Shown: piece after piece, positions 2,523-42,747 of the stretch
Layout: each line of letters begins with the position of its first letter
How positions within the stretch are numbered: position 1 is the first letter of the stretch
Source of the DNA: a virus
Lineage: Duplodnaviria > Heunggongvirae > Uroviricota > Caudoviricetes
IMG/VR virus record: IMGVR_UViG_3300045988_156243
DNA length: 48,634 nt
Direction: 5' to 3' (one strand)
Notes under the pieces: generated by a model
Seen by the model: the letters and a program-made list of their open reading frames with translations, nothing else
Told to the model about the DNA's origin: nothing
The model's database searches: none
Translations under genes and position numbers: made by a program

Positions 2523-2588
2523 TTTTTCAATGGGCGAAACAAAAAATAACCTTCTATTTGTGGTCCACCTCTCGTCTTACCATGTGAA

Positions 2589-5083: not shown

Positions 5084-5105
5084 AAAAAAGGCCCCCGAAG
5101 GGGCC
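5084..5105. terminator. Intrinsic terminator, stronger on the minus strand
   Basis: Hairpin ggcccc-cgaa-ggggcc preceded by aaaaaa (a U-tract on the minus strand). Confidence 0.6.
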
Positions 5106-5111
5106 TAATCG

Positions 5112-5233
5112 CTACTTGCTGCTAATGTTTATCGTCACATTCAGAGCGTTATCAGTAATCTTCCAACCCTCCCCATGTGGCGTAAACAAAGCTCCAGTAA
5201 CAACGATAAAAATACACATACAGTATTTTTTCA
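5112..5233 (-). CDS. Small hydrophobic peptide, candidate type I toxin
   Basis: 40 codons from ATG at 5233 (MKKYCMCIFIVVTGALF...); ORF-track version is TTG-extended; its 5' UTR carries the complement of the 20-mer at 5299-5318. Confidence 0.3.
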
Positions 5234-5298
5234 TTGTGTGGCCCTTACAGGCCGTTTCACGGCATCCCCACCGACGAAAATGACGCGAGAGCAAGCAC

Positions 5299-5318
5299 GC
5301 TGTTTGTGCCTGCGTGGT
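5299..5318. repeat. 20-mer box copy 1 (gctgtttgtgcctgcgtggt)
   Basis: 19/20 identical to 5549-5568. Confidence 0.8.
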
Positions 5319-5548
5319 ACGGCAAGTGGATAATCCTTTCCTGAAAGTCAGTGCCCGGGTGCGAATCGGCGGAAAGGCCCCAAGCCATATTACACGTCAT
5401 ACCCTTCATAATGAAGGAATAAAAAACGCTTTTATTACATAAGATTACACGTAAATAAGTTAAAAACCTTCATTTTGCATGAGCTAATGAGCTAAATTTT
5501 TTTATATGAATAGTGGACTATTCACCTCAGTTGGGTAAGAATGTAGTT

Positions 5549-6409: not shown

Positions 6410-6488
6410 TCCGAGCCGTAGCAAAATCTACGGCCGGGATTAGCCTCCTGAATAACACGATGGCGCATACCGCGTTAGCGGTTTTTTT
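6410..6488 (+). ncRNA. Candidate structured leader/sRNA upstream of the antirepressor operon
   Basis: Hairpin ccgtag-caaaat-ctacgg and ccgc-gtta-gcgg followed by T7 (6470-6488); no ORF. Confidence 0.25.
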
Positions 6489-6650
6489 ATGCGTAGAGCA
6501 CTGTTACGCCCAAATTATGGTGGGTCGTACAGGGGCGGAGAAATCCGCGCCGGTTCGTCATTGTGTCCGGTAAGGCTAACCCTGTACGGCTCACCACCAT
6601 TTGATTAGCCTCGAATGGCGGTGATAGTTCCATATACTGGAGATATCACA

Positions 6651-9671: not shown

Positions 9672-9971
9672 TCAGATGTTAAACGCTATTCGTTTTCCTG
9701 TGGGAAGCTCAACATCCAGGCTTAATTTGCCTCCCATAGCTTCAACGTAACGCTTTAATGTCGCCAGCTTTAAATCATTTCCGCGCTGCTCCAGCTTTGT
9801 TACTGCTGGCTGGCTTATACCCATCGCCTCAGCAACCTGTTTTTGTGATAACTGGAGTTCTTCACGCATCATCTGCAAGCCGACCTCAAGAATCATCTCA
9901 TCTGCCATTTCTTTAATTCGCGCCTGGCTTTCCGGTGAACGGCTGGCAATCGCCTCATCTAATGTTCTCAT
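9672..9971 (-). CDS. HigA-like antitoxin (HTH_XRE)
   Basis: 99 aa; HTH LQLSQKQVAEAMGISQPAVTKLEQ; sits immediately downstream of the toxin gene. Confidence 0.75.
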   Translation of the reverse strand: MRTLDEAIASRSPESQARIKEMADEMILEVGLQMMREELQLSQKQVAEAMGISQPAVTKLEQRGNDLKLATLKRYVEAMGGKLSLDVELPTGKRIAFNI

Positions 9972-10318
9972 TACTTGCTCTCCAGTGTGTTCAGATGTGC
10001 TGCAAACTCATCCTCAGCTATACGCACCAGTTTTTCATAAAACCGCTTATCGTTACTTTTGTCTCCTGCACAAAGAACGATGGCCCGGCGAATCGGATCG
10101 AACGCATAAAAGGCTCTTATCGGACGGCCAGAAAACTGAACGCGAAGCTCTTTCATATTTTTGTACCGAGAACCTTTTACGGTATCGGCATATGGCCTAG
10201 GTAACTCAGGTCCGTAAACCTGTAGCTTTTTCAAATCAGCCAAAACCTTTTCCTGAAGAGCGTCTTCTTGCTCATTTAGCCAGTCGTCAAATCGCTGGCT
10301 AAAAAGTACCGTCCACAT
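9971..10318 (-). CDS. RelE/HigB-type toxin (phage Gp49-like killer protein family)
   Basis: 115 aa from ATG at 10318 (ORF-track start is TTG); toxin-first order overlapping the antitoxin start. Confidence 0.7.
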   Translation of the reverse strand: MWTVLFSQRFDDWLNEQEDALQEKVLADLKKLQVYGPELPRPYADTVKGSRYKNMKELRVQFSGRPIRAFYAFDPIRRAIVLCAGDKSNDKRFYEKLVRIAEDEFAAHLNTLESK

Positions 10319-10355
10319 GCTCAATCCTATAACCTGTAGTTTATATCACTAACTA

Positions 10356-11149: not shown

Positions 11150-11349
11150 TTATTATATCTACGATGGTAGGAAATCTTTTCCTATGTGGCAATAGAAATT
11201 TACTACATTGCGTATAAGACAACTTTTCTATGTCTAATAGGAAATGATGTTTCTTACGTTTTATCGCGTTCTGATGGCTACTGTGTGCGTATTTATCGAC
11301 GTTTATTGATAAGGCTCCCCCTTCCTCCTGCAAAGCCCGGCCGTAGGCC

Positions 11350-11780
11350 TTATTTCGTCCTTATATAAATTGATTTTGTATAGTTCGAAACGCGCCGTTT
11401 CGAAAAGGATGATCAGGCTACTCCATGCCTCCGGCAAGTGCCGGAGGAGGTATATTTGAGCGTAGCGACTCGAACCGGCGCGAGCTTTAGCTCGCTGCAA
11501 GGGCGAACATATTCACAGGCAAAGCCTGCGTAAGTTAAATAAAGAAAGTTTTAATAAAAGAAAGTGATTTTGCATTTATTTGTTTAGTGCATCTATTATA
11601 AAAAACCATTTGCATATACATATCAAAACTGTGGATAACTTGATTAGTTGATACCTGTAAAGGCGATATTTTTGCTGAGTTCAGGTTTAGAGAAAATTAA
11701 TTTAGCTTGTTTTTTGAACAGCTATTTTTTTGCGACGTAGATAATCCTCCGGTAAAACCGGATTCATCATTCAGGTGAGT
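11350..11780. other. Candidate plasmid replication origin region downstream of repA
   Basis: AT-rich; DnaA box tgtggataa at 11630-11638; GC hairpins at 11385-11405, 11428-11448 and 11465-11485. Confidence 0.45.
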
Positions 11781-12628
11781 TAATGTTGGAGTGATTTCCA
11801 GGTCTTTCTTAGCCTGTTATAACGCTGCTCAACGAGGGATCGTAAATATGCAAGGTCAGCACCAGGATACATGCCATCAGCAAATTCCTGGCTAACCTCT
11901 CTAGTGATTTGATGACGAAGTTCGGCCTCTCCCTTTTCCTGAACAAGACGCGCAGCTCTCTCCGCTGCTTTCTGTTTTGCCTTTATCTCTCTGGCCGTCT
12001 TCCTCTGACGCCATACATTCTCCATCTGCTCCTGAATAACAATACGCTTATAATCAGCCTCCGTTATCGCTTTTTTAAGCCGTTCGCTATTCTTCGCATT
12101 GAAGTAATTAAGTTTCTGGCTAACCGCACGTCTCCATGCTTGTTCAGTAATACCAACGGTTTCCAGCAGTTGATCACGAATCTCTATTTTCGCTGGCCAA
12201 TACTGTTTATTCACCCGATCCCAGCGACGTTCATAATCAATAAAACCTAACGCTTTCAGTTGCGACAACGCCCTTGTACAGCGCGTTATAGACTTGTTCC
12301 CAGCTTCGGATACGGTAGACAGGCCGCAAAAATCAGCCAACGCCTCAGCACTAGCCAGAACCCGCTTAGAAATGATGTTTACATGGTGCAAAATCGCAGC
12401 GATCACAGCATTAATCGCCCGACGACGATGCTCGTTTATCCGGCGCTTCCGCTCTGACGGTTGATTAACGTAGAACGCAACCTCACACGTAAGATCACGC
12501 CCATTAATGCGCTGTAAAGCATCAGATAACACCAGCGGCAGCTTGTGCGTATGGTGCTTTGGAGGCTGGAACTCCGGCGACAAATTACAAACGTAAGCTG
12601 AACGTAGAGACGGCATTGGTCTATCCAT
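11780..12628 (-). CDS. repA: Plasmid replication initiator, IncFII RepA1-like
   Basis: 283 aa from ATG at 12628 (ORF-track start is TTG at 12790); SITRCTRALSQLKALGFIDYE resembles the RepA1 motif SITRATRAL as I recall it. Confidence 0.8.
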   Translation of the reverse strand: MDRPMPSLRSAYVCNLSPEFQPPKHHTHKLPLVLSDALQRINGRDLTCEVAFYVNQPSERKRRINEHRRRAINAVIAAILHHVNIISKRVLASAEALADFCGLSTVSEAGNKSITRCTRALSQLKALGFIDYERRWDRVNKQYWPAKIEIRDQLLETVGITEQAWRRAVSQKLNYFNAKNSERLKKAITEADYKRIVIQEQMENVWRQRKTAREIKAKQKAAERAARLVQEKGEAELRHQITREVSQEFADGMYPGADLAYLRSLVEQRYNRLRKTWKSLQH

Positions 12629-12673
12629 ATGTTCGCTCTTGCGTCCACGGAAAACCAACGTATAATGGGAGTT

Positions 12674-12752
12674 GTCGAGGCGCCCATGGATATTGTTGTT
12701 GGTTTTCCGTGGATGTCGCAAGAAGCCCGCAGATTTATCTGCGGGCTTTTTG
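12674..12752 (+). ncRNA. Candidate antisense RNA to the repA leader (CopA-like)
   Basis: Plus-strand promoter TTGCGT (12639-12644), 17 bp, TATAAT (12662-12667); terminator agcccgcag-atttat-ctgcgggct plus T5 at 12722-12753; 16-bp inverted repeat arms 12644-12659 and 12698-12713 around the repA RBS. Confidence 0.4.
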
Positions 12753-12794
12753 TTTCCATATCTGGTCACTTTCCAACCAGACACCCACAATCAT

Positions 12795-12811
12795 AACCAC
12801 GTTACGTGGTT
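12795..12811. promoter_or_regulatory. Operator-like palindrome aaccacgttacgtggtt upstream of the repA leader
   Basis: Same AACCAC-N5-GTGGTT pattern as the cI/cro operators. Confidence 0.4.
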
Positions 12812-12940
12812 TTAAGAGAACTCTACCACAACACTTTCGGTCATGCACGAAGTCTCTCACTGATCGAACGATAATCCACCAGTAAAAGGATCTAAATTGG
12901 ATCTCGTTTTGCGAGCATCATACTACTGGCCTAACTCCAG

Positions 12941-13495
12941 TCAATGATTCCCAGCCGGAAACCTGCGGTAAAGCGTGGATAAGGTAACATCGAAGATAAT
13001 CGCTATCCGCTTACGTGAAACACCATTCGCAATAAGCCTTCCGATCTGTTCCCATTGCTCTGGTGCCAGCTTTGAGCGACGTCCTCCTATCCTGCCGTTA
13101 GCCCTTGCCACCGCCAATCCTGCACGCGTTCTTTCAATCATATTTTCCCGCTCCATCTCTGCGACTGCACTCAGCATCGTGTAGGCAAAGCGGCCAATTG
13201 AAGTGCTAATTTTTATCCCTTCCGTAATCGAAATAAACTCAATGTTGTTTGATAAAAAATGGTTAAGTAAATCAACAAGATGAATCAGAGAACGCCCCAT
13301 TCGGTCCAGCTTCCAGACAATAACCGTATCGCCCGGCCGTAGCACCTTAAGTAGCTTATCAAGCCCTGGCCGTTTTGATTTAGCACCGGATATTTTATCT
13401 TCAAAAATCCGGTCACATCCTGAACTCCTGAGCGCCTCCAGTTGTAATTCCAAATTCTGGTCAAAAGTTGACACCCTCGCATAACCATATTGCAT
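12941..13495 (-). CDS. Serine DNA invertase (Gin/Hin/Cin/Pin family)
   Basis: 184 aa; N-terminus MQYGYARVSTFDQNLELQ with catalytic Ser; C-terminal HTH; adjacent to an invertible tail-fibre segment. Confidence 0.9.
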   Translation of the reverse strand: MQYGYARVSTFDQNLELQLEALRSSGCDRIFEDKISGAKSKRPGLDKLLKVLRPGDTVIVWKLDRMGRSLIHLVDLLNHFLSNNIEFISITEGIKISTSIGRFAYTMLSAVAEMERENMIERTRAGLAVARANGRIGGRRSKLAPEQWEQIGRLIANGVSRKRIAIIFDVTLSTLYRRFPAGNH

Positions 13496-42671: not shown

Positions 42672-42747
42672 TGGTGGCCCCTACCGGATTTGAACCGATG
42701 ACCGTGCGATTATGAGTCGCCTGCTCTAACCACTAAGCTAAGGGGCC
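42672..42747 (-). tRNA. tRNA with CAU anticodon (Ile2-like or Met)
   Basis: 76 nt; 7-bp acceptor stem GGCCCCT/AGGGGCC, anticodon loop CUCAUAA, T-loop GGTTCAAATCC, encoded CCA; close to E. coli tRNA-Ile2 as I recall it. Confidence 0.85.

Follow-up and report, generated by a model that had tools for sequence, protein, structure and literature searches.

The 48,634-nucleotide stretch of viral DNA that we analyzed (IMG/VR record IMGVR_UViG_3300045988_156243, from the Caudoviricetes), which we call the window, is essentially a complete phage-plasmid of about 48.6 kb. Its minus strand encodes a replication initiator, RepA, and the repA gene is preceded by a structured leader of about 290 nucleotides (nt) and followed directly by a candidate origin of replication (Table 1). 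An original prediction, made without database searches, had proposed a replicon composed of this initiator, a counter-transcript within its leader, and a downstream origin with a DnaA box, AT-rich DNA, and hairpins, and our comparisons with relatives suggest that the gist of it was right. That this is an antisense-controlled replicon of the IncFII/IncL-M superfamily seems to us quite probable. We hold the fuller picture less firmly, although we still lean towards it: that the region is the maintenance replicon of a phage-plasmid of about 48 kb, that its initiator and origin are of the IncFII kind, and that its leader is a switch operated by an antisense RNA.

Table 1. Features of the candidate replicon, with positions in the window
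Feature	Position	Strand	Basis or remark
Candidate repA promoter TTGACT-16-TATGAT	12917..12944	-	consensus scan, 10/12 matches; putative activity
5' hairpin of repA leader, two GATC sites 11 bp apart	12884..12910	-	RNAalifold consensus, six diverse leaders
Two further leader hairpins	12760..12811	-	12795-12811, invariant stem; 12760-12782, compensatory changes
Predicted antisense (counter-transcript) RNA of ~80 nt	12672..12755	+	5' end estimated; fold and RNAalifold consensus of 15 homologues
Antisense intrinsic terminator	12719..12755	+	hairpin 12719-12752 and T-tract
Hairpin B, 5' arm	12698..12724	-	upper 12698-12713, lower 12717-12724; within antisense-complementary region
Antisense stem-loop 1	12684..12712	+	stem 12684-12690 / 12706-12712; 15-nt U/G-rich specificity loop 12691-12705
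Antisense promoter	12639..12666	+	-35 TTGCGT 12639-12644, 16-bp spacer, -10 TATAAT 12661-12666; putative activity
Hairpin B, 3' arm	12636..12659	-	upper 12644-12659, lower 12636-12643 with AAGAG; outside antisense region
Ribosome-binding region mimicking the 5' arm (hairpin C partner)	12617..12630	-	ends 1-4 nt before repA AUG
repA, replication initiator	11780..12616	-	278 aa from conserved ATG; PF02387 and NF040977 matches
Post-stop hairpin TCCGGT-TTT-ACCGGA	11748..11762	-	conserved with covariation in all relatives; recognizable in classical IncFII
DnaA box TTATCCACA	11630..11638	-	TGTGGATAA on plus strand
Three ATGCA(A/C) repeats, candidate RepA-binding sites	11571..11615	-	plus-strand TGCAT at 11571, 11588, 11611
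AT-rich stretch, candidate unwinding region	11530..11625		25-31% G+C
Origin-distal hairpin cluster, candidate single-strand priming signals	11339..11528		five hairpins; covariation

The same replicon is carried by 62 plasmids in PLSDB, all of which are typed as non-mobilizable. Of these matching plasmids, which are about 47-50 kb in size, 59 show 95-99.7% identity across the repA region (11300-12950). Most come from Escherichia coli, including strain ATCC 25922, with three from Salmonella and one from Klebsiella aerogenes. Among 5,426 complete E. coli genomes, 71 contain the replicon, in 82 places, and all 82 are on plasmids, with none in a chromosome. The replicon region is also found, at 98.6-99.7% identity, in the Yersinia phages vB_YpM_39, 41, and 44, whose isolation host was Yersinia pestis. 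On the ATCC 25922 plasmid, the annotated genes include head, tail, lysis, ParA, and toxin-antitoxin genes; repA is the sole annotated initiator and no integrase is annotated. A 94-kb record from ATCC 25922 with two copies of the replicon might have served as a natural test of compatibility, but it is a head-to-tail assembly dimer with identical proteins.

We collected relatives of the locus by protein searches, contig look-ups, two pattern scans, and fetches from PLSDB (labels such as L003 refer to these loci). Clade I shares the window's leader, and its RepA proteins are 62-100% identical to the window's. Most clade-II loci have a RepA identity of about 60%, and three have one of about 30%. 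The two clades have one control-region design in common, and down to a RepA identity of about 60%, relatives keep the features of the replicon and show compensatory changes in them. The leader of clade II has no match in PLSDB, so we could not link this clade to a typed plasmid group. A scan of genome contigs with the pattern CCTCGACANCNCCNATTATA returned 40 unrelated contigs from metagenome-assembled genomes, which is about the chance number for 17 specified bases, and we set these aside; a second pattern scan, of viral contigs and for further loop alleles, gave no new loci.

By its profile matches, RepA is a member of the broad IncFII/IncL-M family of initiators, outside IncFII proper. It matches the Pfam model PF02387 (IncFII_repA) at 150.9 bits (cut-off 22.9, E 6e-44) across profile positions 2-272 of 275, and the NCBIfam model NF040977 (RepA_IncFII_LM) at 232.2 bits (cut-off 70). 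Its score against the IncFII equivalog model, TIGR03474, is 78.9 bits, far below the cut-off of 446.9, whereas a classical IncFII control scores 581.5. The label "IncFII-like" that had been proposed is thus apt for the superfamily but not for IncFII itself. RepA is 39% identical to the R100-type RepA1, over just 105 residues, and although PLSDB has thousands of IncFII plasmids, tblastn at E 1e-10 did not reach any of them. Beyond its own group, the closest plasmid relatives are of the pKPC_UVA01 type or are from Buchnera, Sodalis, or Serratia, with RepA identities of about 37% or less.

Where does RepA begin? The open reading frame (ORF) runs from a TTG at 12790 to the stop at 11780 on the minus strand, with in-frame ATGs at 12628-12626 and 12616-12614. 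The original prediction discounted the TTG, correctly as it turns out, and preferred ATG 12628, which would prepend MDRP to the 278-residue protein. This ATG shares the repA frame in the window, as its equivalent does in L014, but the equivalents in the L003/L004 and L015/L016/L075 types do not; in Salmonella-type and K. aerogenes-type relatives, the frame is lost at this ATG, and the equivalent of ATG 12616 is the only one of the two to be conserved. All clade-I relatives keep the equivalent of ATG 12616. We therefore take 12616 as the conserved start of repA, which leaves 12628 as a possible alternative in the window's element.

A RepA that extends further upstream, from TTG 12790 or from the ATG at 12759 that is used by the Prokaryotic Genome Annotation Pipeline (PGAP), can be ruled out. 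The region 12628-12790 contains indels that are not multiples of three among near-identical elements, and one source of these is a loop whose alleles are 20, 22, 23, or 25 nt long; these shift the frame, which shows that the leader is non-coding. PGAP calls the 278-residue RepA in several plasmids where the leader frame is broken and a form of 325-326 residues in many others. Given the broken frame, the long form is an annotation artifact, and a recurrent one, which is corrected here. The annotated length of RepA tracks the length of the loop allele; this flip was seen on comparing L001, L005, L097, L098, L100, L101, L105, L107, and L108 with L099, L102, L103, and L106. The representative (P0001) of the 90%-identity cluster of RepA proteins is the long form, at 326 residues. 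We also considered a frame-b ORF that starts at the conserved ATGGGCGCC (83 codons, overlapping repA) as a leader peptide, but it has no Shine-Dalgarno (SD) element and its stop is not near the repA start.

The predicted antisense RNA lies on the plus strand within the leader. Its promoter was described in the original prediction as near-consensus, with a 17-bp spacer; the -10 lies at 12661-12666 rather than 12662-12667, the spacer is 16 bp, and the description is apt for the -10 only, as the -35 is poorer. Our argument from the -10 rests on L001-L017, which were fetched via protein or overall DNA similarity: TATAAT and the adjoining GGGAGTTGTCGAGG are invariant in L003-L005 and L007-L017, and L006 alone among L001-L017 lacks the -10. 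These invariant bases lie unpaired in the apical loop of a hairpin in the mRNA. The predicted transcript, taken as 85 nt, folds at -41.2 kcal/mol (z = -6.9) into two hairpins. The second is the intrinsic terminator that had been placed at 12722-12753; its arms (12719-12734 and 12737-12752) are 94% complementary and are followed by TTTTTGTTT, it shows one compensatory change (A-U to G-C), and its U-tract is on the plus strand only, in both clades. The first, stem-loop 1, keeps its six core pairs in 15 of 15 homologues if it is read in the antisense orientation, by way of U·G and G·U pairs. Read in the sense orientation, it has C·A and A·C mismatches, and just 80% of alignment cells pair. Because of the invariant -10, the strand-specific U-tract, the stem that is kept by G·U pairs, and the hypervariable loop that we describe below, an antisense RNA of about 80 nt is well supported by comparison, and we infer that its promoter is active.

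The loop of stem-loop 1 varies far more than its surroundings. Among the E. coli-type elements, whose flanks are 97-99% identical, there are 11 loop alleles, and the 25-nt bin at 12675-12699 has eight variable columns, as compared to a mean of about 1.5, which makes it the densest such bin in 1.65 kb. In clade II, the hypervariable segment is likewise the apical loop of the predicted antisense hairpin. We infer that this loop is a candidate determinant of incompatibility and specificity.

How might the antisense RNA act? The leader folds strongly (z = -7.9 for 316 nt), and it contains a 16-nt inverted repeat that had been reported at 12644-12659 and 12698-12713 and that is found at exactly those positions; its arms are 100% complementary and 38 nt apart. 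With an 8-bp lower stem, the repeat forms hairpin B, which is present in every homologue, with 98.2% of alignment cells paired. Three stem pairs have changed on both sides (a fourth such pair is in the terminator), the covariation score was reached by 0 of 500 shuffles, and slid controls pair at 35-45%. The antisense RNA spans the 5' arm and the apical loop of hairpin B, not the 3' arm. As positions 12698-12713 of the antisense RNA are the same 16 nt as the 3' arm, the RNA and that arm should be competitors for pairing with the 5' arm.

What the 3' arm would do once displaced is suggested by the ribosome-binding site (RBS) of repA, which resembles the 5' arm. If the antisense target is forced to be single-stranded, then the 3' arm folds onto the RBS, forming what we call hairpin C; each of the six clade-I types shows this, with energies between -15.6 and -17.4 kcal/mol. 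The complementarity between the 3' arm and the RBS is in the top 0-2.5% of equal-length segments within 2.5 kb of neighboring sequence. There is also three-way covariation: segments that read CCACGG, CCATGG, and CCGTGG in the window read CCACAG, CTATGG, and CTGTGG in a S. salamae plasmid (L003), and the one change in the 5' arm (CCACGG to CCACAG) is accompanied by a fitting change in each of the two segments with which this arm can pair. Clade II has the same three-part design with unrelated sequences: there, the 3' arm is CCUGGCU, and the partner of the freed arm is the SD of a leader ORF. Finally, when the antisense target is blocked, opening the RBS is predicted to cost more energy in each of 18 homologues; the increase is 1.4-7.2 kcal/mol for clade I and 4.4-11.3 kcal/mol for clade II. 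This modeling suggests that hairpin B is a permissive (pre-emptor) structure and that its 3' arm, when released, sequesters the conserved RBS. The original prediction was that the inverted repeat could sequester the RBS itself; its lower stem does cover the AAGAG in front of ATG 12628, but the comparative folding suggests that it is permissive instead.

The switch that we have in mind would work as follows. A plus-strand RNA of about 80 nt would be transcribed from the promoter embedded in the leader and would end at its own terminator. In free mRNA, hairpin B would retain the 3' arm, and the start region of repA would be comparatively open. Upon binding, the antisense RNA, which is complementary to the 5' arm and apical loop of hairpin B, would capture the 5' arm, and the freed 3' arm would pair with the look-alike of the 5' arm over the ribosome-binding region, so that translation would fall. 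The U/G-rich loop of stem-loop 1 would set the specificity, and its hypervariability could yield many control types that are blind to each other. We also considered a pseudoknot between the apical loop of the mRNA and the RBS (UAUCCAU with AUGGAUA), but it is found in the window's allele and is not conserved in other loop alleles.

Downstream of repA, the layout of the origin is common to the aligned relatives of both clades and to L006. The DnaA box that had been predicted is perfect, and the 48,634 bases contain no other such box. It lies 142 nt past the repA stop, and in most relatives, though not all, it is in the same orientation at 121-142 nt; G+C is 25-31% across the adjoining 11520-11720. 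All aligned relatives in the two clades retain the ATGCA repeats, as does L006, and by analogy with R1 these could be RepA sites. In plasmid R1, RepA binds directly beside the DnaA box of the 188-bp oriR, and replication is unidirectional (PMC5883639). By that paradigm, RepA made from the structured leader would act on the origin directly downstream of its own gene. Against the classical IncFII oriR, just the post-stop hairpin and an A-tract can be aligned.

Beyond the AT-rich stretch is a cluster of hairpins. The original prediction listed three GC hairpins at 11385-11485; two of these are at 11384-11404 and 11428-11447, and the third, with its core at 11480-11495 and an extended, imperfect stem of 17 bp (11471-11506), runs past the end of that interval. 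There are two more, at 11516-11528 and 11339-11349. Across 11 diverse relatives, RNAalifold finds nine pairs in these hairpins that have changed on both sides. No hairpin has a T-tract after it, whichever strand is read, so intrinsic termination is not their role. It is plausible that they are single-strand initiation signals, and they would then probably prime leading-strand synthesis away from repA. The leading strand of R1 is reportedly primed at a primase site (the G site) downstream of oriR. Like the G site and the complementary-strand origin of phage G4, the cluster has at least three stable hairpins on one strand with a CTG immediately 3' of the last one (in the window a conserved CTG, 11495-11497 on the plus strand, directly after the core at 11480-11495); the motif is CTGCAAGGG in the window and CTGCAAAGC in G4, and its orientation fits leading-strand synthesis away from repA. 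Unlike in G4, the hairpins are about 21 nt apart instead of 7-8 nt, the CTG is inside an extended stem, and there is no wider similarity of sequence. The 9-mer CTGCAAGGG (11495-11503, plus strand) also adjoins the DnaA box of the classical IncFII oriR (2548-2556, plus strand, in our control locus L091), on the opposite strand relative to repA.

The control region invites other explanations. The antisense RNA might act as it does in the classical IncFII or I-complex plasmids, with hairpin B as the OFF state that buries the AAGAG of ATG 12628; kissing or steric hindrance would block its opening, or an activator step, possibly followed by RNase III cleavage, and nothing would refold onto the RBS. 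We think this unlikely, even though the lower stem of hairpin B pairs with AAGAG or AAGGG in all 15 homologues, where changes on one side leave the pairing intact, and ATG 12628 has the better-spaced SD-like element. It would also fit with the tap/repY-like leader ORF of clade II, whose stop is over the repA start, and with the I-complex pseudoknot region of L006 and pKPC_UVA01. However, the L003/L004 and L015/L016/L075 types have the equivalent of ATG 12628 out of the repA frame, an antisense RNA bound to the 5' arm would expose the AAGAG instead of hiding it, the 5' end of the antisense RNA is over 30 nt from the AAGAG, and the SD of clade II is outside hairpin B. Moreover, the window's control region has no UUGGCG loop and no match to CopA, PK-repBA, or PK-repZ. 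Control might instead be mainly transcriptional: the convergent plus-strand promoter, which points from within the leader towards the repA promoter, and partial termination of the repA strand at the 12719-12752 hairpin would together limit read-through into repA, and RNA pairing would be secondary. The hairpin is indeed in the repA leader and is followed on the sense strand by UUCUU, but this is a poor U-tract in clade I and is absent from clade II (UCUGCGG), and interference alone would not explain the hypervariable loop, the strand-specific G·U pairs, or the conserved complementarity between the 3' arm and the RBS. We consider this quite improbable. We are just as doubtful that there is no regulatory antisense RNA at all, with the repeat and hairpins being cis-acting elements that stabilize the mRNA or bind a protein (such as an auto-operator for RepA) and the TATAAT being fortuitous or conserved for some other reason. 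A dimeric DNA-binding protein would also select for symmetric changes in an inverted repeat, and the -35 is weak. But the G·U pairs are valid only on the mRNA strand in hairpin B and only on the opposite strand in stem-loop 1, which points to selection at the level of RNA on both strands. Furthermore, there is a strong terminator whose U-tract is on the plus strand only, with no other plus-strand gene for it to serve, and the sequence of the apical loop that holds the -10 and the start region is invariant even though it is unpaired in the mRNA.

Some of our results count against the switch as we have drawn it. The -10 of the antisense promoter matches the consensus at 6 of 6 positions, but the -35 does so at only 3 of 6, and our consensus scan passed over the site. 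The energy for opening the window's own RBS goes from 7.3 to 9.2 kcal/mol, a rise of just 1.9, and the constrained minimum-free-energy fold of the window favors another long-range pairing over hairpin C, by about 1.7 kcal/mol. The best SD-like element for ATG 12628, AAGAG, is buried in hairpin B, and if repA really began at that ATG, then hairpin B would represent the OFF state and the switch would work the other way round. The relatives that covary represent few independent lineages, and the conservation of the -10 in L058-L090 is circular, as these loci were fetched with a pattern that includes it. We put the specific direction of the switch at even chances. As for the origin, the hairpin cluster folds alike as DNA on the two strands (z = -3.4 and -3.6), and its resemblance to G4 is limited to the hairpins and the adjacent CTGCAA(G/A)G. 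These hairpins (11339-11528) might not prime replication and could instead be sites for RepA or a host factor, a barrier to replication or transcription, or a 3' structure of read-through repA mRNA. The equal folding of the two strands and the enclosure of the CTG by the extended stem speak for this alternative, and a protein site would suit the presence of CTGCAAGGG beside the classical IncFII DnaA box on the other strand. Nine compensatory pairs in the stems, together with variable loops, are the signature of a folded single strand; the lack of T-tracts after the hairpins and the reported priming of R1 downstream of oriR also count against the alternative. We give the non-priming alternative an appreciable chance but would not choose it.

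The control region does not correspond to a catalogued type. Rfam gives no relevant match in the window at gathering thresholds and none in the control region at E up to 10. The original prediction had suggested a search for a CopA-like RNA, and there is no match to CopA (RF00042) in the control region even at E up to 10, as there is none to PK-repBA or PK-repZ. The same search found all three families in control loci: CopA scores 106.6 bits in the IncFII control locus (L091), and PK-repBA, with a gathering score of 45, scores 56.7 bits in the pKPC_UVA01-type locus (L094) and 49.3 bits in L006. Weak matches on 12640-12755, to Thr_leader (31.6 bits, with a gathering score of 55) and to the CsrC terminator, seem to reflect generic resemblance to a hairpin followed by a terminator. 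The leader (12600-12950) contains neither TTGGCG nor UUGGCG. The window has no tap-type leader ORF, as no ATG, GTG, or TTG is available to begin the frame ending at 12621, and ATG 12628 is in the repA frame. There is no copB upstream either (copB/RepA2 is present in the IncFII control locus); the neighbor is a serine DNA invertase (Resolvase and HTH_7 domains), with no other conserved ORF between it and repA.

The replicon has features of several known systems. With R1 and R100, it shares the initiator superfamily in both Pfam and NCBIfam, a long repA leader with a counter-transcript, which is predicted in the window, probable specificity in the antisense loop, and an origin directly downstream of repA that has a perfect DnaA box and then an AT-rich region, as well as a homologous post-stop hairpin (TCCGG..CCGGAGG) and A-tract. 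It differs from them in its RepA, which has the low identity and failed equivalog match given above, in lacking a CopA match, a copB gene, and a tap ORF, in having a recognition hairpin that is separate from the terminator of the antisense RNA, and in an origin that cannot be aligned past the first ~80 bp. The I-complex and IncL-M plasmids (IncB pMU720, ColIb-P9, pMU604) also share the RepA superfamily, as NF040977 covers both IncFII and L/M, and they too have a short counter-transcript (RNAI) against a leader stem-loop and a leader ORF (repB or repY) whose stop is over the repA start, as in the clade-II relatives. The window has no match to their activator pseudoknot (PK-repBA, RF01089; PK-repZ, RF01087) and lacks the UUGGCG loop of their leader stem-loop I, and its YUNR-like UUGG is in the loop of the antisense RNA rather than in the target. 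In the Gram-positive plasmids pT181, pIP501, and pAMβ1, refolding that is induced by an antisense RNA leads to transcription attenuation, and pSK41 is a translational variant. The proposed switch is like these in that a counter-transcript takes the 5' partner of a pre-emptor helix and the 3' partner then forms an inhibitory helix. The Rep proteins and hosts are unrelated, however, and there is no sequence relationship; also, the inhibitory helix in the window would cover the ribosome-binding region and has no U-tract, which points to an effect on translation. Overall, the predicted control region, with its two-hairpin antisense RNA, three-part leader switch, and hypervariable loop, appears to differ from the catalogued types.

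Control regions do not track the phylogeny of the initiators. The metagenomic locus L006 encodes a RepA that is 62.5% identical to the window's, which is as close as clade II, and yet it has a PK-repBA region, which implies that the control region was exchanged or remodeled within the initiator family. PK-repBA regions with a UUGGCG loop are at 2363-2489 in L006 and at 744-863 in L094; the latter plasmid type, pKPC_UVA01, has a RepA with 37% identity and belongs to MOB-suite rep_cluster_1367. In clade II, the stop of the leader ORF overlaps the repA start (ATGA). This coupled ORF has expanded, from about 40 codons in L011 to 158-162 residues in L007 (2016-2504) and L008 (2028-2504), and the long form includes a segment that is like the N terminus of RepA (31% identical to RepA residues 11-164). 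A bolder proposal, to which we give somewhat less than even weight, is that the window and its relatives represent a third, undescribed type of copy control in the IncFII/I-complex/IncL-M superfamily. This type would combine the three-part switch with specificities that diversify quickly and are compatible with each other, would be common to two clades of phage-plasmids, and would have replaced an ancestral pseudoknot/UUGGCG system that an equally close relative still has.

We searched the literature and did not find a description of this replicon, although a 2026 bioRxiv preprint on heteroresistance in phage-plasmids (copA, SSU5) may overlap. A survey labels one of the carrier elements merely as a "phage plasmid" (PMC7822866), and another study deals with P1-like and SSU5-like elements (PMC8085198). 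The PLSDB records that we opened for carrier plasmids give no replicon type. A paper on phage HQ103 (PMC11177050) that we considered as a source on the replicon is unrelated, and the HQ103 primer is absent from the window.

Other features of the element are less directly tied to replication control. The TTGACT...TAT(G/C)AT of the candidate repA promoter is conserved among clade-I relatives. Just downstream of it, the pair of GATC sites is kept in most of these relatives; it could be a 5' hairpin of the mRNA or, equally, a site for Dam methylation and sequestration by SeqA. The Hin/Cin-type serine invertase (12941-13495, minus strand) ends 3 bp into the -35 of this promoter. In some relatives (among L015, L075, L101, and L105), a gene for tail-fiber assembly takes its place directly beside the leader, and L075 has had its -35 replaced. 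The presence of either gene at about 12945 indicates a recombination junction at the edge of the replicon. Downstream of the origin are a Gp49/HigB-type toxin and its helix-turn-helix partner (9971-10324, minus strand, and neighbors), and relatives have HicAB or ParE modules in place of this module. An isrK-like RNA (6415-6488, plus strand, 68 bits) and a C4 antisense RNA (6513-6601, plus strand, 70.8 bits), both above the Rfam gathering scores, look like the immI-type antirepressor control module of P1 and P7. The window also has a full-length RNA of the ryfA family, here on a mobile element (5084-5382, minus strand; 131 bits, with a gathering score of 80), and a tRNA-Met (CAT) gene at 42672-42747 on the minus strand.

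Neither antisense control of the synthesis of Rep proteins nor origins with DnaA boxes are new in principle, as both are in textbooks. Nevertheless, about 1.3% of complete E. coli genomes carry this element, among them that of the reference strain ATCC 25922, and once its start codon, control RNA, and origin are defined, they offer a target for typing and a compact minimal replicon of about 1.6 kb. If the switch is real, then refolding by an antisense RNA, which is best known from Gram-positive plasmids, would have been adopted by an enterobacterial replicon of the IncFII type, and the loop alleles would provide a natural series in which to follow the evolution of incompatibility specificity among phage-plasmids.

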